Of a stretch of DNA of 64,000 nt, positions 1 to 25,117 are shown piece after piece. The first letter of the stretch is position 1. Every line of letters starts with the position of its first letter. A program made the position numbers and the translations under genes. The DNA lies in NCBI RefSeq assembly GCF_003334765.1, contig NZ_QOWT01000022.1; one strand, 5' to 3'. This DNA comes from Escherichia coli. Its GTDB lineage: Bacteria > Pseudomonadota > Gammaproteobacteria > Enterobacterales > Enterobacteriaceae. The notes beneath the pieces were generated by a model that saw only the letters and a program-made list of their open reading frames with translations, did no database searches and was not told the DNA's origin.

Positions 1-555
1 GCCGCCTTTCAGGACGCCAGTATGCTGATGCGCATCAACCACAATCCCGTTAGAGCTCATCGCTCCACCGCCCTGGGTAACGCCACCATTGATCACCACT
101 TCGCTGTTAATACGCGTGCGGTCAGCCTCCAGCATAAACTCACTGGTTTTCAGGGTGATATTGTCAGCGGCCTCAATGACCATTGATTTGATGCCCCTGA
201 CATACCAGCGCCCGGTGGCGGGTTCGTATTCAAACCAGCCGCCGTCAGGATGTTCTGTCACGCAGGCGTCCGCCGACGTCGAAGGTGGCGCGAACTGATT
301 CGAATAGATGGCGGGTAACGCAAAGGCGGTTTCCAGATTGCCGCCCAGACTCAGCAGCACCACCTGCTCACCTTCCGATGGTCGCCACCATGTGCGGGCA
401 TTACCCGCGCGCAGCGTCAGCCAGTTAATCCAGTTGGTTTCAAGGTCGCCCGTTTTCACCCGACAAAGCCAGTTTTCCCGGTCCACTTCGGTGACTACAC
501 CTATGCGGATCAGATTGGTGATAAGGCGCATGATTTCGGTTAGTTGTGCGTTCAT
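1..555 (-). CDS. Phage baseplate assembly protein V (gpV-like), N-terminal ~185 codons; 3' end lies beyond the window start
   Basis: Reverse-strand translation from ATG at 555-553 reads MNAQLTEIMRLITNLIRIGVVTEVDRENWLCRVKTGDLETNWINWLTLRAGNARTWWRPSEGEQVV..., typical of P2 gpV; absent from the ORF track because it has no stop in the window. Confidence 0.8.
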   Translation of the reverse strand, partial: MNAQLTEIMRLITNLIRIGVVTEVDRENWLCRVKTGDLETNWINWLTLRAGNARTWWRPSEGEQVVLLSLGGNLETAFALPAIYSNQFAPPSTSADACVTEHPDGGWFEYEPATGRWYVRGIKSMVIEAADNITLKTSEFMLEADRTRINSEVVINGGVTQGGGAMSSNGIVVDAHQHTGVLKGG

Positions 556-658
556 AGATATATGATGACAGCTGAAAACTTGTTTATAACTTCTTGCAAA
601 TTGTGGTATCGATGGTACAAATTGATAAAAGGATAAAAAACAACCAATAGGTGGATAA

Positions 659-1465
659 ATGAGTGTTATGAATCCAATAAGTTCTAATATATTTAATGCT
701 GAATTTTTAAACACCCCGGCAGCGGCACTTGCCGCATGGATTTCCATTATTGGAGCTGTTATAACTTTGGTGACGATAGTTATAAGAGCACTATTCAAAT
801 ATAGAAAATCTCATGATGTAATTTTGAAAAAATCAGGAATACCTGCGTTTATATTGAATTTTTTTCTTATACGAATATCATTAAAAAGGCTGCCTACTAT
901 CACATGGGCTGAAAAATCAATCACGGTTCTCTTTTCACTTCTTTTTTTGTGTGCAATTTATATTTTTGGTCCAGTTTTCATCCAAGCCATTAGAACCCCA
1001 CCAAATAGCACATTGCTTTATTGGATAAAATCCGGTGAATCATTTTATATGTCAAAAAAACTGGCGACTGCAGCTACAATATTAACCACTCCTGATTGGG
1101 AAATATCAAAGGATGATTGCGAAGAGTCATCCTCTGCCAGTACAGAGAAGTACAAATCATTAACTATCGAACATAAAGAAATTCTTTGTAAACTACTAAC
1201 CACTGATGAAGGGAATGCTTACATTGATGAAGAAGTCAAGAATTTCGTTAAAGACAAATTCTTTATCTATTCCTTTGCCCCAACAACCATATTTATTCTA
1301 TTATGGATTTCTTTGGGTTTTATACTGACCATTCACTATTCTAAAAAAGTTAGGAAATATATTCTGACTGAACAAAAAAATGCAATTCATTGGGCATATG
1401 GTGAATTCAAGACAGAAGGAATCTATTCAATATATCAAGAGTTAGAACGTAAGACTCACCATTAA
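659..1465 (+). CDS. Hypothetical polytopic membrane protein (268 aa), AT-rich cargo gene between S and V
   Basis: ORF with GGTGG Shine-Dalgarno 6 nt upstream; several hydrophobic helices; AT-rich; opposite strand to flanking tail genes. Confidence 0.5.
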   Translation: MSVMNPISSNIFNAEFLNTPAAALAAWISIIGAVITLVTIVIRALFKYRKSHDVILKKSGIPAFILNFFLIRISLKRLPTITWAEKSITVLFSLLFLCAIYIFGPVFIQAIRTPPNSTLLYWIKSGESFYMSKKLATAATILTTPDWEISKDDCEESSSASTEKYKSLTIEHKEILCKLLTTDEGNAYIDEEVKNFVKDKFFIYSFAPTTIFILLWISLGFILTIHYSKKVRKYILTEQKNAIHWAYGEFKTEGIYSIYQELERKTHH

Positions 1466-1853
1466 GACCCAACAAACGACGCTCTGCGTAACGCACTTCC
1501 GGTCCTTTGCGGCTGACGCGATCGCGCAGGCCATAATGGTGAACGCGGGCAATGCGCTGCACCTTACCTTCAAACTGCACGCTGGCAGAATCGGCGCTGG
1601 CGGCAGTTTTCAGGTATTTGGTGGTGCGCAGCTTTGCAAACATCTGACGTTTGATGCGGCCTTTTTTACTGCGCGCCGTGACCTTGCGCGGTTCATAACT
1701 GCTGCCATCTGGATTGCGCTGCATCCTGATATTCTGCTGCTGTGTCCGGCGCAGTTCCTGCGCCAGCTGGCGCATCATGCGGCTTCTTGCGACTGGTTCC
1801 AGATTCGCCAGTAAGGCACTAAGCCAGTCGTCCACCTTCTGCAGTTCAGCCAC
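1407..1853 (-). CDS. Phage tail completion / virion morphogenesis protein (gpS-like)
   Basis: 148-aa ORF with the sequence character of the phage virion morphogenesis family; lies between R-like and V as in P2. Confidence 0.7.
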   Translation of the reverse strand: MAELQKVDDWLSALLANLEPVARSRMMRQLAQELRRTQQQNIRMQRNPDGSSYEPRKVTARSKKGRIKRQMFAKLRTTKYLKTAASADSASVQFEGKVQRIARVHHYGLRDRVSRKGPEVRYAERRLLGLNGESYVLTLDILNRFLLS

Positions 1854-2304
1854 GTTTCACCGTCCACATTTCTTCAGGTTCATCGGGTTCTGCTACCGCT
1901 TCAACGCTCGACACACTGCCGTCAGTGCTGACCAGCACACGTTCCGTCAGTTGCAGGTTAAGGCTGATATCACAGACATCGTTGCGCAGAATATCCACCT
2001 CAAAGGTAAATAGTTTTTCCCGTAACGCCGGGTTATTGATGGCATCGGGCTGGTTATCCCGCAGCCACAGCAAAACCGGGGCCATCAGCAGATTCTGGTC
2101 GCCGCTGAAATCCTCAATCACCACGTTCAGGGTGTAACCACGCAGCCCTACGAGTTCACTAAAGGCAGTATCTTTCACCTGATGGAGCCGGACCTGAACC
2201 AGGAAATTTACGGCCTGCCGGAATATCTGTCCGCCATTCCGTCCGCCTTGCTGAACGAGTCCGCTACGCTGTTCCGGCGTAAATACTACATCAATGGCAG
2301 TCAT
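1846..2304 (-). CDS. Phage tail completion protein R-like; N-terminal portion probably not native (antisense to portal-derived sequence)
   Basis: 152-aa ORF; its stop overlaps the S start by 8 nt; its first ~40 codons overlap the portal fragment on the other strand. Confidence 0.5.
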   Translation of the reverse strand: MTAIDVVFTPEQRSGLVQQGGRNGGQIFRQAVNFLVQVRLHQVKDTAFSELVGLRGYTLNVVIEDFSGDQNLLMAPVLLWLRDNQPDAINNPALREKLFTFEVDILRNDVCDISLNLQLTERVLVSTDGSVSSVEAVAEPDEPEEMWTVKRG

Positions 2305-2712
2305 GCAGGGTTCATCATGTATATGACCGACGCCGCGCAGAACCAGGAGGACGTGAACAACATCCGCCAGGCCATGAAAAGCGCTAAAGGACCGGGCAAC
2401 TTCCGCAACCTGTTTATGTATTCACCCAACGGCAAAAAGGACGGGATTCAGATAATCCCGCTGTCAGAGGTAGCGGCAAAGGATGAGTTTCTGAACATTA
2501 AGAACGTGAGCCGAGACGACATGATGGCTGCACACCGCGTTCCGCCGCAGATGATGGGGATTATGCCGAGTAATGTTGGGGGATTTGGGGATGTGGAAAA
2601 GGCGAGTAAGGTGTTTGTCCGTAACGAATTGATACCGCTGCAAAAGCGAATTAAAGAAATTAATGAATGGTTGAGTGATGAAATAATTTCTTTCCAACCA
2701 TATGAATTATAA
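2182..2712 (+). pseudogene. Phage portal protein (gpQ-like) C-terminal fragment; 5' boundary uncertain
   Basis: Translation contains RRKYYINGSHAGF and MMAAHRVPPQMMGIMPSNVGGFGDVEKASKVFVRNELIPLQ, which I recognise as portal C-terminal sequence; far too short for a complete portal. Confidence 0.6.
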
Positions 2713-2733
2713 TAAAGTAGGGCAAATAATGCC

Positions 2734-3591
2734 CTACTTTAACCAAATATTATAATCCAATCTTCCTACGTATCTTGAAAAAACAGCCAGAGCAATTGCT
2801 TGCCCTACACTTGTTAATTCAATTCCTTGATAGTTGCTCTTTGAAAATTTTTCTAAAAATGCAGACACATGAGGGGCAACTAACTTAAGATTTGAAATAT
2901 ATGCACTCTTATCTTTTATATCAGTCGGATATTTACTCATAAAATAGTCTTCAACATCCATCCCTAAAAAAGTATTCCATGAACAAGCCCCTGCATATTG
3001 AATGTGATATATCTGGGCTTGAGACAAATTAAACCCATTAGTATACATTGATTCAAAGTTTCTAAAATTGTGCTCCAACAAATCCAATCGAACACCATTA
3101 ACAGGGTCTTTGATCTCAACATTCTTGAGAAGAAAAACTATCGTTATAAGTGATATTTGTTGCTGTGTTAACTTGGGAACGACGGTAACTGCCTCCGTTA
3201 AAACTATATCTCTAAAATCGTCATTGTTATTGGAGACTCGTTCAACTAACAACTGAGAAAGCACATCCATATTAGCTTTCTTTCCCTTCCTGGCTGATGA
3301 CTTTAATGCCTCAGTCAATGTAGCCTGAACGTCCGGATCGCAAAATTTATCAATAATCAATCTATCAACGTTTTTTGTTAAATCCGAAACGACACGCTCT
3401 TCAAAATCTTTTGCATTCTCTTGAGCTGCAGCATAAGCAACATCTTTCAATTTTGGAAACTGATTTTCGAAGAGAATGTTGAATAGTTCTCTAACCTCGG
3501 AAAACGACATCCCTGAAACATTTACATTATTTCCAGCTTGAATTGCATACGAATTATTACCTATTTGTTGCTTTTGCTTATCACTAAACAT
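2734..3591 (-). CDS. Hypothetical protein (285 aa), AT-rich cargo; second gene of a two-gene module
   Basis: Start is preceded by GGAGGA directly after the stop of the upstream small membrane protein gene; no family recognised. Confidence 0.6.
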   Translation of the reverse strand: MFSDKQKQQIGNNSYAIQAGNNVNVSGMSFSEVRELFNILFENQFPKLKDVAYAAAQENAKDFEERVVSDLTKNVDRLIIDKFCDPDVQATLTEALKSSARKGKKANMDVLSQLLVERVSNNNDDFRDIVLTEAVTVVPKLTQQQISLITIVFLLKNVEIKDPVNGVRLDLLEHNFRNFESMYTNGFNLSQAQIYHIQYAGACSWNTFLGMDVEDYFMSKYPTDIKDKSAYISNLKLVAPHVSAFLEKFSKSNYQGIELTSVGQAIALAVFSRYVGRLDYNIWLK

Positions 3592-3600
3592 ATATCCTCC

Positions 3601-3846
3601 TTATTTTTTATCACCTGTATTTATACAATCAATTTTAATATCACCTCTAGCCTGGACAGCAGTTGAATTATCACCAACTGATTGGCTCATAGAATTATAT
3701 TTATTTTTTGTAGTGATAAGTAATCCAGCTAAAGCGCTAACTGCAGCCAAAAATGCAACAATAGAATCAAAACCAGGATCCATATAAAGCCATAATCCTG
3801 CAATCGATGCCAGCATACATGTAATGACTATTGCAAAAATTTTCAT
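3601..3846 (-). CDS. Small membrane protein (81 aa, two predicted TM helices); first gene of the two-gene cargo module
   Basis: ORF with AGGAG upstream; hydrophobic N-terminal two-thirds, polar C-terminal tail. Confidence 0.55.
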   Translation of the reverse strand: MKIFAIVITCMLASIAGLWLYMDPGFDSIVAFLAAVSALAGLLITTKNKYNSMSQSVGDNSTAVQARGDIKIDCINTGDKK

Positions 3847-3914
3847 AAATTCTCCTTCTAATGGAAGTGGTTATACCGAAAACAATTTCCTTTTACAACC
3901 ACGCACAGCGCGCG

Positions 3915-3940
3915 CTCGTATCCCCGCCACGCCTGCCCGC
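3915..3940 (-). other. Candidate cohesive-end (cos)-like sequence of the P2/186 type
   Basis: Minus strand reads GGCAGGCGTGGCGGGGATA; the GGCGTGGCGGGGA core matches the 186/P2 cos overhang as I recall it, and it sits in a GC-rich island between AT-rich cargo. Confidence 0.3.
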
Positions 3941-3983
3941 TTTGTGTAGTGGTTTTCATGCACCTGCATGACATAAGTAAAAG

Positions 3984-4001
3984 CCCGCCAGAACTGGCGG
4001 G
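3984..4001 (-). terminator. Hairpin plus T-run on the minus strand (possible relic phage terminator beside cos)
   Basis: cccgcca-gaac-tggcggg stem-loop followed on the minus strand by CTTTTACTT. Confidence 0.35.
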
Positions 4002-4151
4002 ACTGAGCAAAAACGATCCTTTTGCGATCATTCATTTTCATGCGCTATAGTCATGCAACAAACGCATACGAACCATATGGTTAGATTACTCATCAAGTCA
4101 GATGGATTTTCAGGCAGATTGCCACAGCAATTGTAAAGGAGCGAGATTGAA

Positions 4152-5153
4152 ATGGGTGGAGAGACTTCGGCTATACAACGAGTCGCGGGTAAGATTTCTG
4201 ATGATATTTTCTCAGTGTTCAAATGGGATCGTGCCGCTAGAGCGGACATGAATTGGGATTGTTGCCAAGAGGCTCATTCCAAGAAAACACATCCAAGCGA
4301 TGTTGTATTTTTCTACATAGATCCATATGAGGAGGAAATGGTCTATCTCAACACAGACCTCAAAAGCTATGCAGAAGGTACTATTGGGAAAAAAATAGTC
4401 GAGGGAGCTTTAACATCGCTTGCTTTAGCTACCGAGTGTGCAAATGTCAGTGAAGAATGGCGATTGAAATATGTTCATGATGATTCTTTAGGTTATAACG
4501 TAAGAGGGTTATTATTCTTATATAACCATGATAATTTATATGATAAAGACTTCTATGAGAATATTACAAAAAAATTAGATCACTCATCTATAAATTGCCC
4601 TCCAAACATCAAACTACATTTGCTTGACCCTTATAAAATATCAGATTTGATAAACATATCTTCTGACATAACTAAGTTAATTGGTTCAGGCAAACTTCCT
4701 CAACCTGATAAGTTCACATATTATTATCCAGATCTTTCCCTAACAAGAATAAAGCACCCTATTAATCAGACAACACCTGCAACAATTGAATTATTAACAT
4801 CACCATACATTATAATAAAGCATGAGGCTTTCAGTTGGCTCAGGGATAAAAACCCTGAGGGATATGTTGTTTATTACAATCAACCGGGGGATTCAGTAGA
4901 CGAATTCGTTTACTTCTTTGATATGTTATCAACTTATCAGATATTAACCGAAGGTAAACCAATCGTATTACGCCATTGTCACATTCACCCAAATGAAAAT
5001 GCCATTCATCATTTTGAAAGAGCGAAAAAGAAATACAGCACAGACTGGCTCTTAGGCGAGGATGAAAGACTTTTTCTTAAAATTGACTTCGACAAGACAG
5101 ACAAAATTGTTGTTGAATATAATCTTGAACAAATCGGCATGGAGCAACGATAA
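4152..5153 (+). CDS. Hypothetical protein (333 aa), gene 1 of a three-gene cargo cassette; possible PD-(D/E)xK-like motif
   Basis: AGGAG upstream; AT-rich; FFYIDPYEEEMVYLNTDLK resembles a hhhD...(D/E)xK nuclease core; no Walker A. Confidence 0.7.
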   Translation: MGGETSAIQRVAGKISDDIFSVFKWDRAARADMNWDCCQEAHSKKTHPSDVVFFYIDPYEEEMVYLNTDLKSYAEGTIGKKIVEGALTSLALATECANVSEEWRLKYVHDDSLGYNVRGLLFLYNHDNLYDKDFYENITKKLDHSSINCPPNIKLHLLDPYKISDLINISSDITKLIGSGKLPQPDKFTYYYPDLSLTRIKHPINQTTPATIELLTSPYIIIKHEAFSWLRDKNPEGYVVYYNQPGDSVDEFVYFFDMLSTYQILTEGKPIVLRHCHIHPNENAIHHFERAKKKYSTDWLLGEDERLFLKIDFDKTDKIVVEYNLEQIGMEQR

Positions 5154-6232
5154 TGGCTAAAAAACTATATTTCGCAACTGATAAAAATATTTATGATGCA
5201 TTACATCATAAAAGGATAACCGCTGCAAAGTTGCATGAATTATTGTTGAATCGAGGTGTGTTTTTATCACCAGAACTCGACAAGGAAATACTAATCGAGG
5301 AAATATCCAAACTTCCTCACGGATTTAATGAATTAGAACACATAAAAAAACTGGTCAAAACATATGACCCAAGGGAAAGCACTACTAGTGTGAGCTTCCA
5401 AACCTCAACAAATCAGGCCGAATTAAAAAGTGCTGCTGAAGCACTAAAAAAAACATGCTCCCCTAGTAAAGGTCAAAGCCTGAATATTGTAGCTAAAAAA
5501 GATGGCTCGCTTACAGTAGAATACAAATATGAAGAAATAGACCTGTCTAAAACTGCATTACGTCAGATCGACAAGCGGAATGTTATAATAGAACTTCGCC
5601 CTGGAGCTGACAAAGTTGAAGTACGTATGCCTCAAAACCCCGAGGCAAAAAAAGTTATTGAGAGCTTGCAAAACGAGCTATCTAAAATCAAGTCCGAACC
5701 TATCGAGCGCTTCGAAATATCATTACTAGCAATAACTGATCCTACATTGCGAAGTCAGTTTTTTCAGGAATTAATGAATGGTCTACGCGGTTATGAGACT
5801 GATGACGTAACAAAAGTCGAATTAAATCGCAGTACTGATGCTAGTGAGGATGAAGACAAGGAAGAAACTATTGATACCGGATTTGTTAAGAAAGCCGTCC
5901 TTAATGGTGAAGGGGTAAATAGTTCAGCTATATTTTCTCAACTACATGAGAAAGGTTATTATATCGGGCGTATTGCATGGTCTTCAAAGCCGACAAGTGG
6001 AATTGGAGACAGAATCAACGTCGAAGCATTTTTCAAAGACTCAGAAAAATGCTGTGACTTTGCCTATCAAATTAAAGGTATAAACAATCAAAAAGAAGAC
6101 GGTTTCAATGTAACCATTCGCGCGGCAACGGCACAAGAGAAAAAACATATTAGTGAATTAATTGAGTCCGCCGCTGAAAATGCCTATAATATAATAATAG
6201 GATCAGAGGTGAACGAAGATGAAAAAGGTTAA
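5153..6232 (+). CDS. Hypothetical protein (359 aa), gene 2 of the three-gene cassette
   Basis: ATG overlaps the gene 1 stop (TAATG at 5151-5155); GGAG 8 nt upstream; acidic patch SEDEDKEE; no recognisable family. Confidence 0.7.
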   Translation: MAKKLYFATDKNIYDALHHKRITAAKLHELLLNRGVFLSPELDKEILIEEISKLPHGFNELEHIKKLVKTYDPRESTTSVSFQTSTNQAELKSAAEALKKTCSPSKGQSLNIVAKKDGSLTVEYKYEEIDLSKTALRQIDKRNVIIELRPGADKVEVRMPQNPEAKKVIESLQNELSKIKSEPIERFEISLLAITDPTLRSQFFQELMNGLRGYETDDVTKVELNRSTDASEDEDKEETIDTGFVKKAVLNGEGVNSSAIFSQLHEKGYYIGRIAWSSKPTSGIGDRINVEAFFKDSEKCCDFAYQIKGINNQKEDGFNVTIRAATAQEKKHISELIESAAENAYNIIIGSEVNEDEKG

Positions 6233-6902
6233 ATGGCTTAAGTTAAACATACGGCTTGAGTTTGAAACAGCCGTTAGACGTCTTTCTCTTGATTCTTTTA
6301 CAGAGGATAAAGGGAAAGGGTTCATTTTTGATAAAATACGCCATGATTTTGCAAATGGTCGCTTTGTCGAGCGTATTGTTTATCATGATAAAATATTAAG
6401 CTTTGACGGAAGCGAAACTACCGTTGAAAGAATCGAATATCGCACCACAAATTTTAGCGTGGCTTTAGACTCTCTTCCTGTAATGCAGATTACTAACCCA
6501 CCCAGAACTTTAAAGCCTTTTTCGCAGGCTTTGGTAAAAAATCTTGGCTTAGGTGTTAGTTTGGAAGAAATTGACATAAACCCTATAGACTGGCTTAATG
6601 AAATATCTTCAAGTGTAAATATCAATTTAACACAACTTGATATTTCAAGGGTTAGAGTTTCTGATTACGCCACAGCTAAAATGCAAATAATTGGCAGCAA
6701 TGATCTTAGGAAGTATTATAAAGAAGAATTAGAGGGTAAAAAAATAAGAATTGACAGGCTTGTTTGCTCTGTTAATTCATTAGAATATTCCGGTAAGCTC
6801 AAGATCACCAATAGCGGCCTTGCTTATATTGATGTTAGAAATGAGAATGAGTTTACGAAAATCGTTTTTGATACGTTAAAAAAAGTCACCCTTCAATCAT
6901 AG
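6219..6902 (+). CDS. Hypothetical protein (227 aa), gene 3 of the three-gene cassette
   Basis: Start lies 14 nt inside the end of gene 2 (translational coupling); GAGGTG upstream; no recognisable family. Confidence 0.65.
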   Translation: MKKVKWLKLNIRLEFETAVRRLSLDSFTEDKGKGFIFDKIRHDFANGRFVERIVYHDKILSFDGSETTVERIEYRTTNFSVALDSLPVMQITNPPRTLKPFSQALVKNLGLGVSLEEIDINPIDWLNEISSSVNINLTQLDISRVRVSDYATAKMQIIGSNDLRKYYKEELEGKKIRIDRLVCSVNSLEYSGKLKITNSGLAYIDVRNENEFTKIVFDTLKKVTLQS

Positions 6903-6958
6903 ATGGCTTATAAGGAGTTACTTCACCTAACGCCTCGCCTTACTCGTTGTTCAACCTC

Positions 6959-6989
6959 GTAGGCGTCAGAATCAAGTTCTGACGCCTAC
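6959..6989. terminator. Perfect 13-bp inverted repeat hairpin between the cassette and the convergent DinI-like gene
   Basis: gtaggcgtcagaa-tcaag-ttctgacgcctac; no strong T-run on either side, so function as a terminator is uncertain. Confidence 0.35.
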
Positions 6990-6997
6990 AATGTTTC

Positions 6998-7231
6998 TTA
7001 ATGCAGCCAGCTATCGTCCTCCCAGACCTGCTGCATTATTTCCATCACTCGCTTTTTGTCTTCATCCAGTTTTAACCCGCTCAGCTCAACGCCATTGGCG
7101 CTGCCCTTACGGATACGAATTGCTGTTTTGGGATACAGAGGGCGCAAATTACGGTAAAGCTCGGATTCAAGGGCGTCCAGGGTAGACTGGCTAATCTTCT
7201 GCTCTTTATCGATCATTATTTCAATGCGCAT
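6998..7231 (-). CDS. DinI-like protein (77 aa from the MRIEIM start), resembling the C-terminal part of a 186 Tum-type module
   Basis: MRIEIMIDKEQKISQSTLDALESELYRNLRPLYPKTAIRI...VWEDDSWLH resembles DinI; the track ORF (7303 start) is probably over-extended. Confidence 0.6.
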   Translation of the reverse strand: MRIEIMIDKEQKISQSTLDALESELYRNLRPLYPKTAIRIRKGSANGVELSGLKLDEDKKRVMEIMQQVWEDDSWLH

Positions 7232-7241
7232 AAAAGCCACC

Positions 7242-7430
7242 TCAGCTGATGACATCCATTGAGCGGTTGTATTCGTGGGTTCTGATTTTTGCCATGAGTT
7301 CATCTGTCAGTTCAGAAACCCACTGCAGAGCCAGCCCCTTCTCTTCATCACTACACTCACTAGCCGCTACAAGCTTAAGAAAAAAATCAATGCGCTGGAG
7401 CTTCAAAGACTCCAAAAAATAGTCCTGCAT
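7242..7430 (-). CDS. Small protein (62 aa), first gene after the LexA-controlled promoter; possible Tum-like antirepressor part
   Basis: AGGAGG 4 nt upstream of the ATG; directly downstream of the LexA box; different frame and overlapping the DinI-like ORF. Confidence 0.4.
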   Translation of the reverse strand: MQDYFLESLKLQRIDFFLKLVAASECSDEEKGLALQWVSELTDELMAKIRTHEYNRSMDVIS

Positions 7431-7471
7431 CTTTCCTCCTATGACACCAAAGCAACACTGTATACATAACC

Positions 7472-7489
7472 ACTGTTTGTATTTACAGT
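7472..7489 (-). promoter_or_regulatory. LexA operator (SOS box) overlapping the -10 of a strong promoter for the Tum/DinI-like genes
   Basis: aCTGT-ttgtattt-ACAGta, a perfect CTGT-N8-ACAG; on the minus strand TTTACA (-35) and TATACT (-10) flank it. Confidence 0.7.
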
Positions 7490-7581
7490 ATATAATAATA
7501 TTACTGATGTAAAACGTTTTTTACGTTCATCAGCCTGATATGCCTGGTATTATTAAGAGCACGAATTGTTAACCTGCGTAA

Positions 7582-17922: not shown

Positions 17923-18207
17923 ATGATTATGAAAAATTGTCTACTGTTGGGCGCGCTTTTAATGGGCTTTACTGGTGTGGCGATGGCGCAAAGTGTCACC
18001 GTCGATGTGCCGAGTGGATACAAAGTGGTTGTGGTTCCTGATTCAGTCAGCGTTCCACAAGCGGTCAGCGTCGCGACTGTGCCGCAAACCGTCTATGTGG
18101 CTCCTGCGCCAGCTCCGGCTTACCGCCCGCATCCTTATGTTCGCCATCTTGCCAGCGTAGGTGAAGGGATGGTTATCGAACACCAGATTGACGACCATCA
18201 CCATTAA
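17923..18207 (+). CDS. ybjH: Small secreted protein YbjH
   Basis: 94-aa ORF with signal peptide, in K-12 synteny. Confidence 0.7.
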   Translation: MIMKNCLLLGALLMGFTGVAMAQSVTVDVPSGYKVVVVPDSVSVPQAVSVATVPQTVYVAPAPAPAYRPHPYVRHLASVGEGMVIEHQIDDHHH

Positions 18208-18247
18208 TTCGAGAATGCCTGATCGCACAAAGCAGTCAGGCATTTTT

Positions 18248-19480
18248 TTACCCTTCGTGAGAATTTCCCATCTGTTTATCTTTTAAAAAGATAACCATCA
18301 GCGACAGCCACAAAATTCCGTTGACAAGGTTGAAGAGATTAAACAGTCCGTTGCCCCCGTTCAGCCAGGCATGTTTGCTGATTTCAATACCAACGGTAAA
18401 GATCAGCATTTGCAGCATTCCCATCGCGGCAGAAACCGTACCTTTACTCATATCGCTGGCAAACAGGGTTAATCGCACCAGTCCCGCATTCGCCAGACCA
18501 ATACCGAAAGCATAAATACTTAACCCGGCAGTCATCCATAAATACGCGTGCGATGAGATAACCGTTGCCGCAGCAGCGACCAATAGACCAATCATAATCG
18601 GCCAGCCGCCCATAATAATCAGCGAACGTACGGTGCGGCGCGAGGTCAGACGCGCTAACAGCAAGTTACCCGCAATTAACGCCCCGAAAATAGGCACTTG
18701 CAGCAAGCCATATTCATAGCTGCTCAACTGCTCGCCGGTAATGATGATAATCGGCGACTGGGCGATCCACGCCAGCAACGGCAGACTAACGAATCCCAGC
18801 GCCAGCGCCCCCGCCACAAAGCGGCCGTTCTTCAGCACCAGCTTATAGTCACGACCGAGTTCTTTCAGTGACAGTTTCTCGCCTATACGCGTGGCGGTTT
18901 CAGGCATGGCTCGTTGCAGACCGAAAAAGGAGATCGCTGCCAATGCGGCAAACAAAACAAACATCCCCTCCCAGGGCAGCACATGGATCCACGCCGCGCC
19001 CACCAGCGGACCAAGTAGCGGAGCAATCAGCGCCACGTTCGCCATCAGCGCGGTGATCTTGATACAAACCGCCTCTTCGAAGGATTCCTGAATTGCGGCG
19101 TATCCCACAGCGCCAATGAAACAGAGGCTTATGCCCTGCAAGAAGCGCAACAGGGTGAATTGTTCAATGTTTTGCGCCAGCAATATTGCCAGACAGGTGA
19201 CGATAAACCACACCACTCCCGCCAGCATCACCGGACGGCGACCAATACGATCCGACAGCGGCCCCAGCAGCCATTGTAAAAACATCCCGCCCGCCAGATA
19301 CGCGGTCATCGAAGTAGGAACCCAATCAATGCCCGCCTGATATTGTTCCACCACGGCCAACATACCGGGTTGAATCATATCGTTGCCGATATAGGTTGAA
19401 AATTCGTAAAGCACCAGACAGAGAGGGAAAAGTAACGCCTGACGTCCAAGCCTGGCACCGGAAGCTAATTTATTTTGCAT
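18248..19480 (-). CDS. mdfA: Multidrug efflux MFS transporter MdfA
   Basis: 410-aa ORF recognised as MdfA. Confidence 0.9.
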
Positions 19481-19764
19481 GCAATTTCTTCGCCAATAAT
19501 AATCGCGCAGAGTTTAATAAAAGCGCAGCTAACGAGAAAGCGAATTTTGTAGCTGAAACCACGGTTAAGCACATTCTTACATTATTACGAGTATAGCTAC
19601 GCTTTCTTTAAGTTTTATTTAACCTATGCCCGTTACAATCACCCACCGTAAACAGGCCGCTTGAGGGAAATAAGACGATGCCGCTTTACCCAGTTTAACC
19701 TGCACTTTATTCTCAACGACTTGCCTGTATTGGCTCCCTTTTAATCACTTTGCGTCGGGAAGTT

Positions 19765-20361
19765 ATGCTGGAAAATTTGAATCTCTCTCTATTCTCTCTT
19801 ATTAACGCGACGCCAGACTCGGCTCCGTGGATGATCTCGTTGGCGATTTTTATTGCTAAAGATTTGATTACCGTGGTGCCGTTGCTGGCCGTGGTACTTT
19901 GGTTGTGGGGGCTTACAGCACAACGGCAACTGGTGATAAAAATCGCTATCGCGCTGGCGGTCAGCCTGTTTGTGTCCTGGACGATGGGACATCTTTTTCC
20001 GCACGACCGACCCTTTGTCGAAAATATCGGCTATAACTTCCTGCATCATGCGGCGGATGACTCATTCCCAAGCGATCACGGTACGGTGATTTTCACCTTT
20101 GCACTGGCATTTTTATGCTGGCATCGCCTGTGGTCCGGCTCACTTTTAATGGTGCTGGCCGTCGTCATTGCCTGGTCGCGCGTTTATCTTGGCGTCCACT
20201 GGCCGCTGGATATGCTCGGTGGATTGCTGGCAGGTATGATTGGCTGCCTTAGTGCCCAGATTATCTGGCAAGCGATGGGGCATAAACTCTATCAACGTCT
20301 GCAATCGTGGTATCGCGTCTGTTTTGCATTACCGATCCGCAAAGGCTGGGTGCGTGACTGA
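19765..20361 (+). CDS. ybjG: Undecaprenyl-pyrophosphate phosphatase YbjG (PAP2 family)
   Basis: MLENLNLSLFSLINATPDSAPWM start; PAP2-type motifs. Confidence 0.85.
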   Translation: MLENLNLSLFSLINATPDSAPWMISLAIFIAKDLITVVPLLAVVLWLWGLTAQRQLVIKIAIALAVSLFVSWTMGHLFPHDRPFVENIGYNFLHHAADDSFPSDHGTVIFTFALAFLCWHRLWSGSLLMVLAVVIAWSRVYLGVHWPLDMLGGLLAGMIGCLSAQIIWQAMGHKLYQRLQSWYRVCFALPIRKGWVRD

Positions 20362-20418
20362 TCTCTGCTAAAAAGTGTAGTATTGAGCGGCTCGCTTCAA
20401 TAACTATTCAGAGGGATT

Positions 20419-21177
20419 ATGGAAACACGTCGCGAAGAGCGTATCGGGCAGCTGCTGCAAGAATTAAAACGCAGCGATAAGTTACATCTTAAAGACGCCG
20501 CCGCCCTGCTTGGGGTTTCGGAGATGACGATTCGTCGCGATCTGAACAACCACAGTGCGCCCGTCGTTTTGCTCGGCGGCTATATTGTTCTGGAACCGCG
20601 CAGTGCCAGCCATTACCTGTTAAGCGATCAAAAATCCCGCCTGGTGGAAGAAAAACGCCGGGCGGCAAAACTGGCTGCGACGCTGGTAGAACCCGATCAG
20701 ACCCTCTTTTTTGACTGTGGCACCACCACGCCGTGGATTATTGAAGCGATTGATAATGAAATCCCTTTTACCGCCGTTTGTTATTCGCTAAATACCTTTC
20801 TGGCGCTGAAAGAGAAACCCCATTGCCGCGCGTTTCTTTGCGGTGGTGAATTTCACGCCAGCAACGCCATTTTCAAACCCATCGATTTTCAGCAAACGCT
20901 GAATAATTTTTGCCCGGATATCGCTTTTTATTCTGCGGCGGGCGTGCATGTCAGTAAAGGCGCTACCTGTTTTAATCTTGAAGAGTTGCCGGTAAAACAC
21001 TGGGCCATGTCGATGGCGCAAAAGCATGTGCTGGTTGTCGACCACAGTAAATTTGGCAAGGTGCGTCCGGCGCGCATGGGTGACCTGAAACGCTTTGATA
21101 TTGTGGTGAGCGATTGTTGCCCGGAAGATGAGTATGTGAAGTACGCGCAGACGCAGCGCATTAAGTTGATGTATTAA
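20419..21177 (+). CDS. deoR: DeoR transcriptional repressor
   Basis: 252-aa DeoR sequence. Confidence 0.9.
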   Translation: METRREERIGQLLQELKRSDKLHLKDAAALLGVSEMTIRRDLNNHSAPVVLLGGYIVLEPRSASHYLLSDQKSRLVEEKRRAAKLAATLVEPDQTLFFDCGTTTPWIIEAIDNEIPFTAVCYSLNTFLALKEKPHCRAFLCGGEFHASNAIFKPIDFQQTLNNFCPDIAFYSAAGVHVSKGATCFNLEELPVKHWAMSMAQKHVLVVDHSKFGKVRPARMGDLKRFDIVVSDCCPEDEYVKYAQTQRIKLMY

Positions 21178-21223
21178 TGACGTATAACCGGATGACGTTT
21201 CGCGCCATCCGGTTATCAGAAGA

Positions 21224-22426
21224 TTAAGAGAACCAGCTGCCGAACCACTGATGGAATTTCATCATCACGAAATCCCACACCCGACCAAAGAATCCGCCCT
21301 CTTCCACATTTTCCATCACGATCAGCGGACGCTGCTCAATGGATTTACCGTTAAGCTGGAAATCAATGGTCCCGACAACCTGACCTTTTTTCAGCGGTGC
21401 GGTAAGCTGCGGTTCCGTTAACGTATAACTCGCTTTCAGGTTTTTCAGCTGCCCACGCGGTATGGTCACTGAGCCCGCTTCACCTGCCCCGAGATTCACT
21501 TCGCTCTTATCACCAAACCAGACGCGCTGAGTCACAAAGGTGGCATCAGGTTTAATTGGCGTCACGGTTTCAAAGAAGCGGAAACCCCAGGTCAATAATT
21601 TCTCAGACTCATTAAAACGGATACGGTCGGTTTTCGCCCCCAACACTACGGAGATTAAACGCATATCGCCCTGGGTAGCCGAAGCAACCAGATTATATCC
21701 CGCGCCTGCCGTGGTTCCTGTCTTCATGCCATCAACATTCAGATTGCTGCTCCACAGCAGACGGTTACGGTTAGGCTGACGAATTTTGTTGAAGGTGAAC
21801 TCTTTCTCTTTATGAATGGCGTACTCTTCCGGCACATCGTGGATCAATGCTTTACCCAGCAATGCCATATCGCGCGCGGTGCTGAACTGCCCCGGCGCAT
21901 CCAGGCCGTGCACCGTCTGGAAGGTAGTGTTGGTCAGACCCAGTTTTTTGGCATAACCATTCATCAGACCAATAAATGACTCCTGGCTCCCGGCAACGTA
22001 ATCAGCCAGCGCAATACAGGCGTCATTACCGGACTGGATAATCACACCTTTGTTCAAGTCTGCCACCGAAACCTGATCGCCCGGTTTGAGGAACATTACC
22101 GATGAACCACGCAGTGCCGGATTTCCCGTCGCCCAGGCATCTTTACCGACCGTCACCATATCGGTGAGTTTAATCTTATCGGCCTTAAGCGCCTGCCCAA
22201 CCACATAGCTGGTCATGATTTTAGTCAGGCTCGCGGGATCCAGTTTCTCATCCGCATTGCCTTCTGCCAGCACTTTACCGCTGGCGTAATCCATTAAAAT
22301 CCATGCACGCGCATCCACGCTCGGCGCTTCAACGGTTTGTTCCGCCGCGAATGCCGTTGGGGCAAAAAGGAATAAAAATGCAGAACCCGCTGCAAGACCA
22401 CGAAGGAGAGAGGAGTATTGCGTCAT
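21224..22426 (-). CDS. dacC: D-alanyl-D-alanine carboxypeptidase DacC (PBP6)
   Basis: Start at [19 protein letters not shown]; SxxK motif (ASLTKIM). Confidence 0.9.
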
Positions 22427-22672
22427 AAATGCCACCCGAGTATCCATTCAAAAAAAATACGTTATATCGCCGTATGATAAGTTTGGTGATTAATAACGCA
22501 CACACAAACTTAAAGAAACCGTAAGTTGGTAAAGTTTTTAAAGTTTATGCAATATCCTGCCGCTTCGCTGCTTCTGGTGTCATTTTTTTGCCAGCTGTTG
22601 CTTAAAAGTTAACTTTACTTCACCATCGGAGTCCTGTTCAGCCTGTGGCTGCCTGTCGGAAAAGGGGTGAGT

Positions 22673-23299
22673 ATGATTACGCTGTGGGGTCGGAATAATT
22701 CAACTAACGTAAAAAAAGTATTGCTGACGCTCGAAGAACTGGAACTACCTTATGAGCAAATTCTCGCGGGCCGTGAGTTTGGGATAAATCACGATGCTGA
22801 TTTTCTGGCGATGAACCCTAACGGGCTGGTGCCGTTGTTGCGTGACGACGAAAGTGATCTCATTCTTTGGGAATCAAACGCCATTGTCCGCTATCTGGCG
22901 GCACAGTACGGGCAAAAACGCCTGTGGATCGACTCACCGGCACGTCGTGCGGAAGCGGAAAAATGGATGGACTGGGCAAACCAGACGCTCAGTAATGCTC
23001 ATCGCGGGATCCTGATGGGATTAGTCAGAACACCACCGGAAGAGCGCGATCAGGCCGCCATTGATGCCAGTTGCAAAGAGTGCGACGCCCTGTTTGCCCT
23101 GCTCGATGCGGAACTGGCAAAAGTAAAATGGTTCTCTGGCGACGAGTTTGGTGTGGGCGATATCGCTATCGCACCGTTCATCTACAATTTGTTTAACGTT
23201 GGCCTGACCTGGACACCGCGTCCAAATCTGCAACGCTGGTATCAGCAACTCACTGAACGCCCCGCAGTGCGCAAAGTGGTGATGATTCCCGTTAGCTAA
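22673..23299 (+). CDS. gstB: Glutathione S-transferase GstB (YliJ)
   Basis: [16 protein letters not shown] start; GST fold. Confidence 0.85.
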
Positions 23300-24411
23300 T
23301 TGCGTGGGCTAACTTTAAGTAATTCCCCACTGGACTCGTCGGTGAGAACGTATAAATAACCGTCGGGTCCAGTGCGAACATCACGAATTCGCTGCCCTCT
23401 GTCCGTTAAAATACGGCCATCTTCTGTCACTTTGTCGCCGTTGACGCTCATCACAATGACATCTTTATCTTTCAGCGCGCCAATAAATAATTTTTGCTGC
23501 CACTGGGGGAATTTATCGCTGTTATAGAAGGCCATGCCGCTCACAGCGGGCGAATCTTTCCAGTAAAAAACAGGTTGCTCGGTCCCGGCGACGATCTCCC
23601 CTTTCGCTTCCGGTATCTTAAAGCCTGAATAGTTGATTCCCCAGGTTGCCAGCGGCCAGCCGTAGTTTTTGCCTTTTTGCGGGATATTAATTTCATCACC
23701 ACCGCGCGGGCCATGTTCATTCAGCCACAGTGCATTACTCCACGGATTCATCGCCATTCCTTGCGGATTACGAATGCCATAAGACCAGATCTCGGCGCGC
23801 GCACCGGATTCCTTTATAAAAGGATTATCATCCGGGATTTCGCCCTGGTCGGTCAGACGCACCAGTTTGCCCTGTAATTTATCCAGATCCTGCGCCGTCG
23901 GGCGCTGATTGTTTTCGCCCAGAGCAATAAAAAGATAACCTTTACCGTCGAATACCAGCCGCCCGCCAAAATGGTTGCCGGTAGACAGTTTTGGCATCTG
24001 GCGAAAGACGGTGCGGAAGTCGGTCACTTTTGAGAGATCATCACTTAAGCGGCCATAACCCACAGCAGTTCCGGCTTTGCCATCATCGCCAACTTCGGAA
24101 TAACTTAACCAGATGCGGCGAGACTGAGCAAAATCAGGCGCTAAAACCACGTCCAGCAGGCCGCCCTGCCCGTGCGCCCAAACGTCCGGAACTCCGGAAA
24201 GCGGCGCAGATAATCCTTTTCCTGCTTGCCAGTGACGCAACTCGCCGCCGCGCAGAGTGATTAACATACCGTGATTATCGGGTAAAAAGGCCAGTGCCCA
24301 GGGATGGTCGAGTTTGTCTTGCAGTACTTCGACATTTACCGTTGCAGGAGCCGCCCAGAGAGCGGAAGAAAGACAAATAAGGGGCACAAGGAAAAAGGAT
24401 TGTCGATGCAT
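23296..24411 (-). CDS. yliI: Soluble aldose sugar dehydrogenase YliI
   Basis: 371-aa secreted beta-propeller protein in K-12 synteny. Confidence 0.85.
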
Positions 24412-24521
24412 AACGCCTCCGGATTGACTCTGGCTTAAAGCGTAGTCAGTGGAGGAGATAACAAATTCATTTTTACAAAAACTTAAACATGAAGGGGGAG
24501 ACGCTTTCTCCCCCTTAGTTT

Positions 24522-24905
24522 TCAGGCCTTCTCAAGCATGGCGTGCTTCTGCAGGCTCTGGATACTCAGCGTTAAGCTCATCAGACAATTTTCAAGCTTA
24601 TCGGCGTTGACGGTAATAACAGTCGGGCAATCATGGTGCCCACTCATCAAACATACTGCGGCTGTCGCTAATGCTTCTTCAGCATGATGAAGAGCACTCC
24701 ACTCTTCCTGATCCAGATGAAGATTCAACCGCAGCGATTTATCGTGCAGTTCGCGATTCAGTTTAAAAAAGTTATCTCGTAGATGATTGCTTTCGCTGAC
24801 GGACATGTATCCTTTTGCCTTCCTCAGTTGCACGTATGCGGCGAGGTCAACGCGTGCGTCGATCAACCGGTTCAGCAGATCGATTCGCTGTCTGTCAACG
24901 AACAT
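24522..24905 (-). CDS. bssR: Biofilm regulator BssR (YliH)
   Basis: Start at MFVDRQRIDLLNRLIDARVDLAAY. Confidence 0.8.
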   Translation of the reverse strand: MFVDRQRIDLLNRLIDARVDLAAYVQLRKAKGYMSVSESNHLRDNFFKLNRELHDKSLRLNLHLDQEEWSALHHAEEALATAAVCLMSGHHDCPTVITVNADKLENCLMSLTLSIQSLQKHAMLEKA

Positions 24906-25117
24906 ACTTCGATCCTCCTCTTCCCAGCCTTGTTGCAATTAAATAGTATGGCTATTTTTTGAGCAAAATGCTGTCCAGGATCAATTCTTCACGCCGAATT
25001 AACAAAATTTACATTTCCTTCGCCTCCGCCAGCGAATGAGATTGCGATACAAATTTTATCCAGAACTCTGTAGAATCCCTGCCCTGACCTTTCCTGTAAC
25101 TGAATATTTTTTAAGCT

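Follow-up and report, generated by a model that had tools for sequence, protein, structure and literature searches.

In phages of the P2/186 type, the late genes follow the order cos-Q-P / O-N-M-L-X-Y-K-lys-R-S-(orf30)-V-W-J-I-H-G...D-ogr, in which orf30 is a non-essential gene. The P2 map further contains the order int-C-...-A. According to the P2 record (NC_001895), P and Q form one operon (the P operon) and O through R and S another (the O operon); the two are divergent, and their promoters, together with a shared activator site, are found between P and O. Such phages are also encountered as defective prophages whose defence genes are intact, as described in a preprint (bioRxiv 10.64898/2026.02.27.708500).

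The element at the left end of the window, i.e. of the whole 64-kb stretch of E. coli DNA analysed here, matches this gene order. It is collinear with P2 and with intact relatives, the order being interrupted only by deleted blocks, which places it among the P2-like (Peduoviridae) prophages. The likeness to the P2/186 type extends to the arrangement with divergent pP/pO late promoters, to cos and to the A replication protein, and the CI/CII/Fil-type early genes are as in 186, while the S, R and Q proteins share only 39-64% identity with those of P2. The integration site of the prophage lies between rcdA and ybjL, and from 15.2 to 64 kb the window consists of ordinary core chromosome with 99.9-100% identity to other E. 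coli. Compared with P2, the element lacks everything from the middle of Q to the middle of R and hence yields no viable phage. On the alignments given below, the region where Q and R now meet is almost certainly the scar of a single 7,066-bp deletion in a P2/186-like prophage of the E. coli chromosome.

The junction was mapped by nucleotide alignment with a near-identical intact prophage, that of Z1322HEC0001 (NZ_CP148585.1). Positions 1-2138 of the window correspond to positions 2918-5055 of this sibling at 100% identity, and positions 2131-15054 to positions 12114-25037 at 99.98% identity (3 mismatches); from the difference in offset, the two matched stretches are 7,066 bp apart in the sibling. 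Both flanks are thus collinear with an intact relative and the essential genes between them are gone, as in a cryptic prophage made defective by internal deletion. A reading of this DNA made from its letters alone (hereafter the sequence-only reading) had proposed a deletion junction here, and the alignment bears it out. The same reading had put the breakpoint between 2137 and 2182; the lower edge of that interval does touch the junction, and the alignment moves the junction itself to 2135-2138 (no strand), where the bases TAAC are common to both parental sides. In a megablast search of 5,426 complete E. coli genomes, the matches of many relatives end exactly at 2138.

At 2131-2138, 7 of the 8 bases match over GGTNTAAC (R side, GGTGTAAC; portal side, GGTCTAAC), and the exact microhomology is the 4-bp TAAC. 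Around the breakpoint the sibling has ...TTCAGGGTGTAAC/GGTACTCC on the R side and ...AATACGGTCTAAC/CACGCAGC on the portal side (the slash marks the breakpoint); the window reads ...TTCAGGGTGTAACCACGCAGC across the join, and the same junction bases occur in two relatives. It should be noted that the microhomology was judged from siblings. Exact microhomology of at least 4 bases is expected by chance at approximately 1.6% of random junctions. No insertion sequence, repeat, mobile element or recombinase site is present at the join. The TAAC at the crossover points to microhomology-mediated illegitimate recombination, and the deletion may have arisen by a RecA-independent event of this kind, via replication slippage or end-joining.

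According to the annotation of the sibling, the genes that are fully missing are lysC and lysB and, from the essential late gene set of a viable phage, those for the endolysin (lysozyme) and holin as well as X, L, M, N, O and P; Q and R have survived in part, with portal codons 1-152 and R codons 1-46 lost and R codon 47 split. When 12 proteins of the deleted block were compared with the 64 kb by tblastn, only R and Q matched, and none of the fully missing genes just named could be traced. The loss of the terminase, scaffold, capsid and lysis genes that the sequence-only reading had suspected is thereby established for the whole window. From its position on the P2 map, the Ogr-dependent divergent pP/pO late promoter region was probably deleted as well, and a consensus scan of 1853-2712 finds no promoter-like site on either strand. 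With that promoter region lost, the truncated R (R'), S and the truncated portal gene ('Q) would be promoterless relics, which are most simply regarded as silent debris. An element in this state would be unable to build heads, to package DNA or to lyse the cell.

R and Q belong to divergently transcribed late operons, and the two stumps therefore meet 5'-to-5'. The join is thus one of two oppositely transcribed, promoterless gene stumps, amounting to half of the portal gene and two-thirds of the tail gene, and it is not a protein fusion. On the minus strand, the R' stump (1846-2138) comprises codons 48-143 of the tail-terminator gene R and the stop codon. An open reading frame of 152 codons extends across the junction (1846-2304, minus strand), in which codons 1-56 are antisense portal sequence and the split junction codon, and codons 57-152 are R codons 48-143. 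Against the tail-terminator profile phrog_65, the 152-aa product aligns by residues 55-150 only, to profile positions 46-144 of 159; in the protein alignment with P2 gpR, real identity sets in at gpR Y48, and identity to the R protein of the sibling begins at residue 48 of 143. The product is thus not a full-length member of the gpR family (PF06891 / phrog_65): the N-terminus is the part that is absent, and the possibility that would have removed the case for a breakpoint, an R-like frame aligning with gpR along its entire length, does not apply. We infer that the 152-aa frame is an accidental chimera.

On the plus strand, the 'Q stump (2135-2712) comprises portal codons 153-343 of 343 and the stop codon, with the first in-frame ATG at 2182. 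The portal homology, which the sequence-only reading had left open to refutation, is strong: the frame 2131-2712 matches the P2-type portal profile phrog_68 with E = 4e-108, over positions 149-338 of 344 only, and is 64% identical to residues 151-339 of P2 gpQ and 99.5% identical to residues 151-343 of the sibling Q. It does not match the portal family (PF04860 / phrog_68) over its full length, and is a genuine yet non-functional fragment of a family member. The 176-aa open reading frame that starts at the ATG occupies 2182-2712, and the reading frame is open back to 2026. Thus the portal-like plus-strand sequence reaching 2712 and the minus-strand R-like frame, both reported earlier, are real and lie where they had been placed, and comparison with the P2 portal and R proteins, by profile and by protein alignment, finds only the C-terminal parts of both. 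Their overlap, previously put at about 40 codons, amounts to 41 codons when the ATG-started portal frame of 2182-2712 is considered; codons 1-56 of the R-like frame coincide with DNA that stems from the portal gene. By sequence check, no Shine-Dalgarno sequence precedes the ATG of the 152-aa frame or that of the portal stump. A hairpin with a 12-bp stem (2713-2741, no strand) is found between the convergent stops of the portal gene and the neighbouring Vpar_1526-family gene, at the position of the terminator tQ in the P2 annotation, and it would be expected to block minus-strand read-through into R'-S.

The genes to the left of the stumps belong to the tail region. The tail-completion gene S (1407-1853, minus strand) is full length (148 aa), and its operon promoter is now probably missing; its product aligns to residues 3-144 of the 150 of P2 gpS and matches phrog_26, and the same allele (WP_000829154.1) occurs in the intact ET350 prophage. 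Truncation of S by the adjacent DUF6216 gene was considered and rejected on the full-length alignment to P2 gpS and the presence of the same allele in intact prophages. The DUF6216 gene itself (659-1465, plus strand) is an AT-rich accessory gene (33% GC) that separates S from V and occupies the place of P2 orf30; intact relatives have it too, so that it does not belong to the damage. Neither PHROG nor PADLOC gave a match for it. Its 3' end shares 59 nt with the 3' end of S, on the opposite strand. The baseplate spike gene V (1-555, minus strand) is represented by its 5' part and continues past the left end of the window; at 100% identity it matches what is annotated as ‘phage baseplate assembly protein V’ in the Z1322HEC0001 and H3 prophages. 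An Ogr-type motif, TGT-N12-ACA, at 602-619 was evaluated as a V promoter and dropped, since at approximately 55 nt from the V start it is too close for a -55 element.

To the right of the portal stump, from 2734 to 13837, all genes of the sibling annotation have reading frames without interruption, in agreement with the earlier proposal that the regulatory, replication and cargo loci have been kept. Accessory cargo in the A-to-Q variable region occupies 2734-7430 and is intact, namely: a Vpar_1526-family gene, a gene for an 81-aa membrane protein, a GAPS4-like trio, a DinI-like gene and a 62-aa open reading frame. Between the portal stop and cos, at 2734-3846, there are two genes of 34% GC, which encode a Vpar_1526/LPO_1073-family protein (285 aa) and the predicted 81-aa membrane protein; they fall in PHROG families without known function, and no PADLOC match was found for either. 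The three-gene operon at 4152-6902 (36% GC) gives full-length matches to the PADLOC candidate-defence models Hp1, Hp2 and Hp3 and carries the Pfam families PDDEXK_GAPS4 and GAPS4b_N; it is predicted to be a GAPS4-like anti-phage system, situated intact in the P2 A-to-Q hotspot. The cos site (3916-3934, minus strand; GGCGTGGCGGGGATACGAG) aligns with the 19-nt cohesive end of P2 and its flanks, and many P2-like phages share the approximately 150 bp of conserved sequence that flank it.

The early, replication and integration module follows at 7582-15102, with A, dam, a traR-like gene, DUF2732 and DUF5347 genes, fil, cII, a small gene at the apl/cox position, cI and int, all of them open. The integrase gene had been counted among the retained functions; this stands in so far as its reading frame is open, with the reservation that an 11-bp tandem duplication (GTGGCGACAAA twice, at 15038-15059; a single copy in three relatives) rewrites its last 7 codons, which are frameshifted into 15 others. 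The catalytic region upstream is untouched. The window lacks an 18-bp repeat that flanks the ET350 prophage and is a candidate for the att core.

The window starts inside V, and the left flank of the element was therefore inferred from contigs that are 100% (ERZ28629515 and an IMG/VR contig) or 99.98% (L019) identical to the window over the overlap. Contig ERZ28629515 (ENA, 167 kb) is 100% identical to 1-5309 and extends leftward, and L019 agrees with it. In these relatives V is followed by W, J, I, H and G and then by an inverted fibre-assembly gene. Beyond this point there are two further deletions, both to the left of the window (ERZ28629515 9700-10700; L019 16650-17330). The first, of approximately 926 bp relative to strain H3, removed the DNA invertase and sheath codons 1-30, and the second, of 3,426 bp relative to ET350, took away the remainder of the sheath, along with the tube, E/E' and approximately the first 530 codons of the tape-measure gene. 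A 262-nt fragment of the sheath gene remains between the two; it is called as a 102-aa open reading frame, which is found in 97 blocks of public assemblies, and its junctions are in none of the complete E. coli genomes. Past the tail deletions come the 3' part of T, then U, D and ogr, and finally the host gene ybjL. The remaining tail genes that the earlier reading had suggested looking for to the left are thus present in a 100%-identical contig, yet the tail module is broken there too. With the sheath, the tube, E and half of T deleted in identical relatives, the element would also be tail-less in function. The whole remnant measures approximately 23.4 kb, against approximately 34.9 kb for the reconstructed parent.

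The retention of so many modules raises the question of whether the element is a helper-dependent, satellite-like hitch-hiker, a prophage in transition to a satellite with a possibly still active integrase, which would move its defence cargo by means of the capsids and tails of a co-resident or incoming P2-like phage. Consistent with this, a cos site that aligns with P2 cos is retained, the early, replication and integration genes are open, ogr is kept also, and the remnant is found in many samples. However, its copies are near-identical and, where the flanks are visible (the ybjL flank), lie at the same chromosomal site, which fits vertical descent; at approximately 23.4 kb it still holds about two-thirds of the parental genome; the tail of its integrase is frameshifted; and it keeps useless tail-gene debris, as expected from random decay. 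It has no gene for redirecting capsid size such as P4 sid, and no sid/psu-like gene is found among the annotated genes. We therefore regard a satellite-like way of life as quite improbable.

The state of the left flank likewise bears on whether the element could be a domesticated tailocin, i.e. a headless contractile tail of the P2 type kept as a bacteriocin, in the manner of R-type pyocins. The head genes are indeed absent, and V, W, J, I, H, G, U, D and ogr are still present. Nevertheless, the element has lost the lysis cassette that release would require, its tail terminator R is incomplete, the promoter serving R and S is probably gone, and in the identical contigs the sheath is reduced to the 262-nt fragment, with the tube, E and approximately the first 530 tape-measure codons missing. 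An R-type tailocin carries the full contractile-tail set and a lysis cassette without head genes, and the element has neither of the first two; this explanation has almost nothing left to commend it. What the genes that remain suggest is a grounded prophage, at most a fixed island of immunity and defence. Its host would be left with the repressor and immunity genes and those for replication, together with cos, an integrase changed only slightly and AT-rich cargo of the defence type; the host would retain immunity to related phages and possibly functions in excision and replication.

We also considered how widely the junction occurs. NCBI, Logan and ENA assemblies from different runs contain the exact chimeric frame on 29 contigs, indexed in 38 blocks. 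The 11 contigs that were compared are 99.88-100% identical to the window; 9 of the contigs were retrieved by exact-protein look-up, and these show 99.88-100% identity over 4.6-12.3 kb, with 0-8 SNPs. The IMG/VR contig IMGVR_UViG_3300045988_157682 likewise contains a 26-nt sequence spanning the junction, and over 6,346 nt it is 100% identical to the window. The R'-'Q junction occurs in 0 of the 5,426 complete E. coli genomes, so that no finished chromosome confirms the whole element, and the 26-nt junction was not found in a species-representative genome collection or in a JGI metagenome collection. It should be noted that gene callers split the stump frames differently, giving a portal product of 131 or 176 aa and an R' product of 152 or 110 aa. 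Exact-protein counts consequently underestimate the spread of the junction, and the 38 blocks of the R' chimera are not comparable with the 97 of the sheath-fragment frame.

Absence from the complete genomes and from the representative-genome and metagenome scans is what would be expected if R and the portal gene had been wrongly joined in assembly, for example by collapse at a short repeat. This can safely be set aside: the same junction or chimeric frame recurs on 29 contigs, which come from separate runs, projects and assemblers (Logan, ENA, NCBI, IMG/VR) and are a few SNPs apart, and a 4-bp repeat cannot mislead an assembler. The near-identity of the contigs that carry the junction argues for an inherited deletion and not for an assembly artefact, and the deletion appears to be one ancestral event, passed on in a lineage that is seen in many independent isolate and metagenome assemblies. 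A natural mosaic formed by recombination between different phages, with no deletion at all, has next to no probability, since, although P2-like phages do swap cargo modules at the A-to-Q hotspot (the cargo of ET350 and BL21 differs there), both flanks match one sibling genome at 99.98% identity or more up to the junction, and the junction interrupts two essential, conserved genes within their reading frames.

Taken together, the deletion reading describes ordinary prophage decay, a further instance of a long-known kind, and not a new system. With regard to annotation, the 152-aa ‘phage tail protein’ and the 131-176-aa ‘portal’ frames represent pseudogene stumps and call for that label, and the element does not belong in counts of inducible prophages.

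The closest relatives of the element are the two siblings already mentioned, Z1322HEC0001 and ET350 (NZ_CP100966.1). They share its cargo (the Vpar_1526-family gene and the GAPS4-like trio), its early genes and its integration site, and differ in retaining the 7,066 bp, from the 5' part of R through the 5' part of Q, that are missing from the window; the ET350 prophage looks intact. The record NZ_CP148585.1 is entered as ‘plasmid pZ1322HEC0001-3’ (55.6 kb, circular) and contains the prophage together with the core genes rcdA to ybiU. From this content, it looks like a mis-assigned chromosome fragment.

Damaged prophages are found at the same site in other lineages, where decay has been independent. 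The defective prophage of E. coli B (BL21(DE3) and REL606) belongs to the same family and is 98.5% identical to the element over V-DUF6216-S-R. Like the element of the window, it has lost head, lysis and tail genes by internal deletions, which in BL21(DE3) extend from the 5' end of the lysozyme gene to the 3' end of O (approximately 3.15 kb), from the invertase through D, and from the 5' end of A through CII. It differs in its hotspot cargo, a retron St85-family pair in place of the GAPS4-like trio, and in its replication gene A, which is truncated in E. coli B and intact in the window. In strain H3, also at the rcdA/ybjL site, the deletions comprise lysC through the 3' end of M (approximately 2.0 kb) and D through T. 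The holin-X-L segment and the 3' end of M are lost in all three damaged lineages (that of the window, H3 and E. coli B); such shared loss might reflect selection against a lethal late module rather than chance, these being three cases only.

The locus thus offers a case of decay in which deletions that differ from lineage to lineage have inactivated the same P2-like prophage at a single site in at least three E. coli lineages. Each of the three retains intact immunity genes and AT-rich defence-type cargo. In the portion of the preprint available to us (bioRxiv 10.64898/2026.02.27.708500), individual deletion junctions are not given and that of the window is not mentioned; the defective P2-like prophages described there show the same pattern, with structural genes broken and hotspot cargo intact, and the parallel decay reported here fits this published picture of such prophages as stabilised defence islands.
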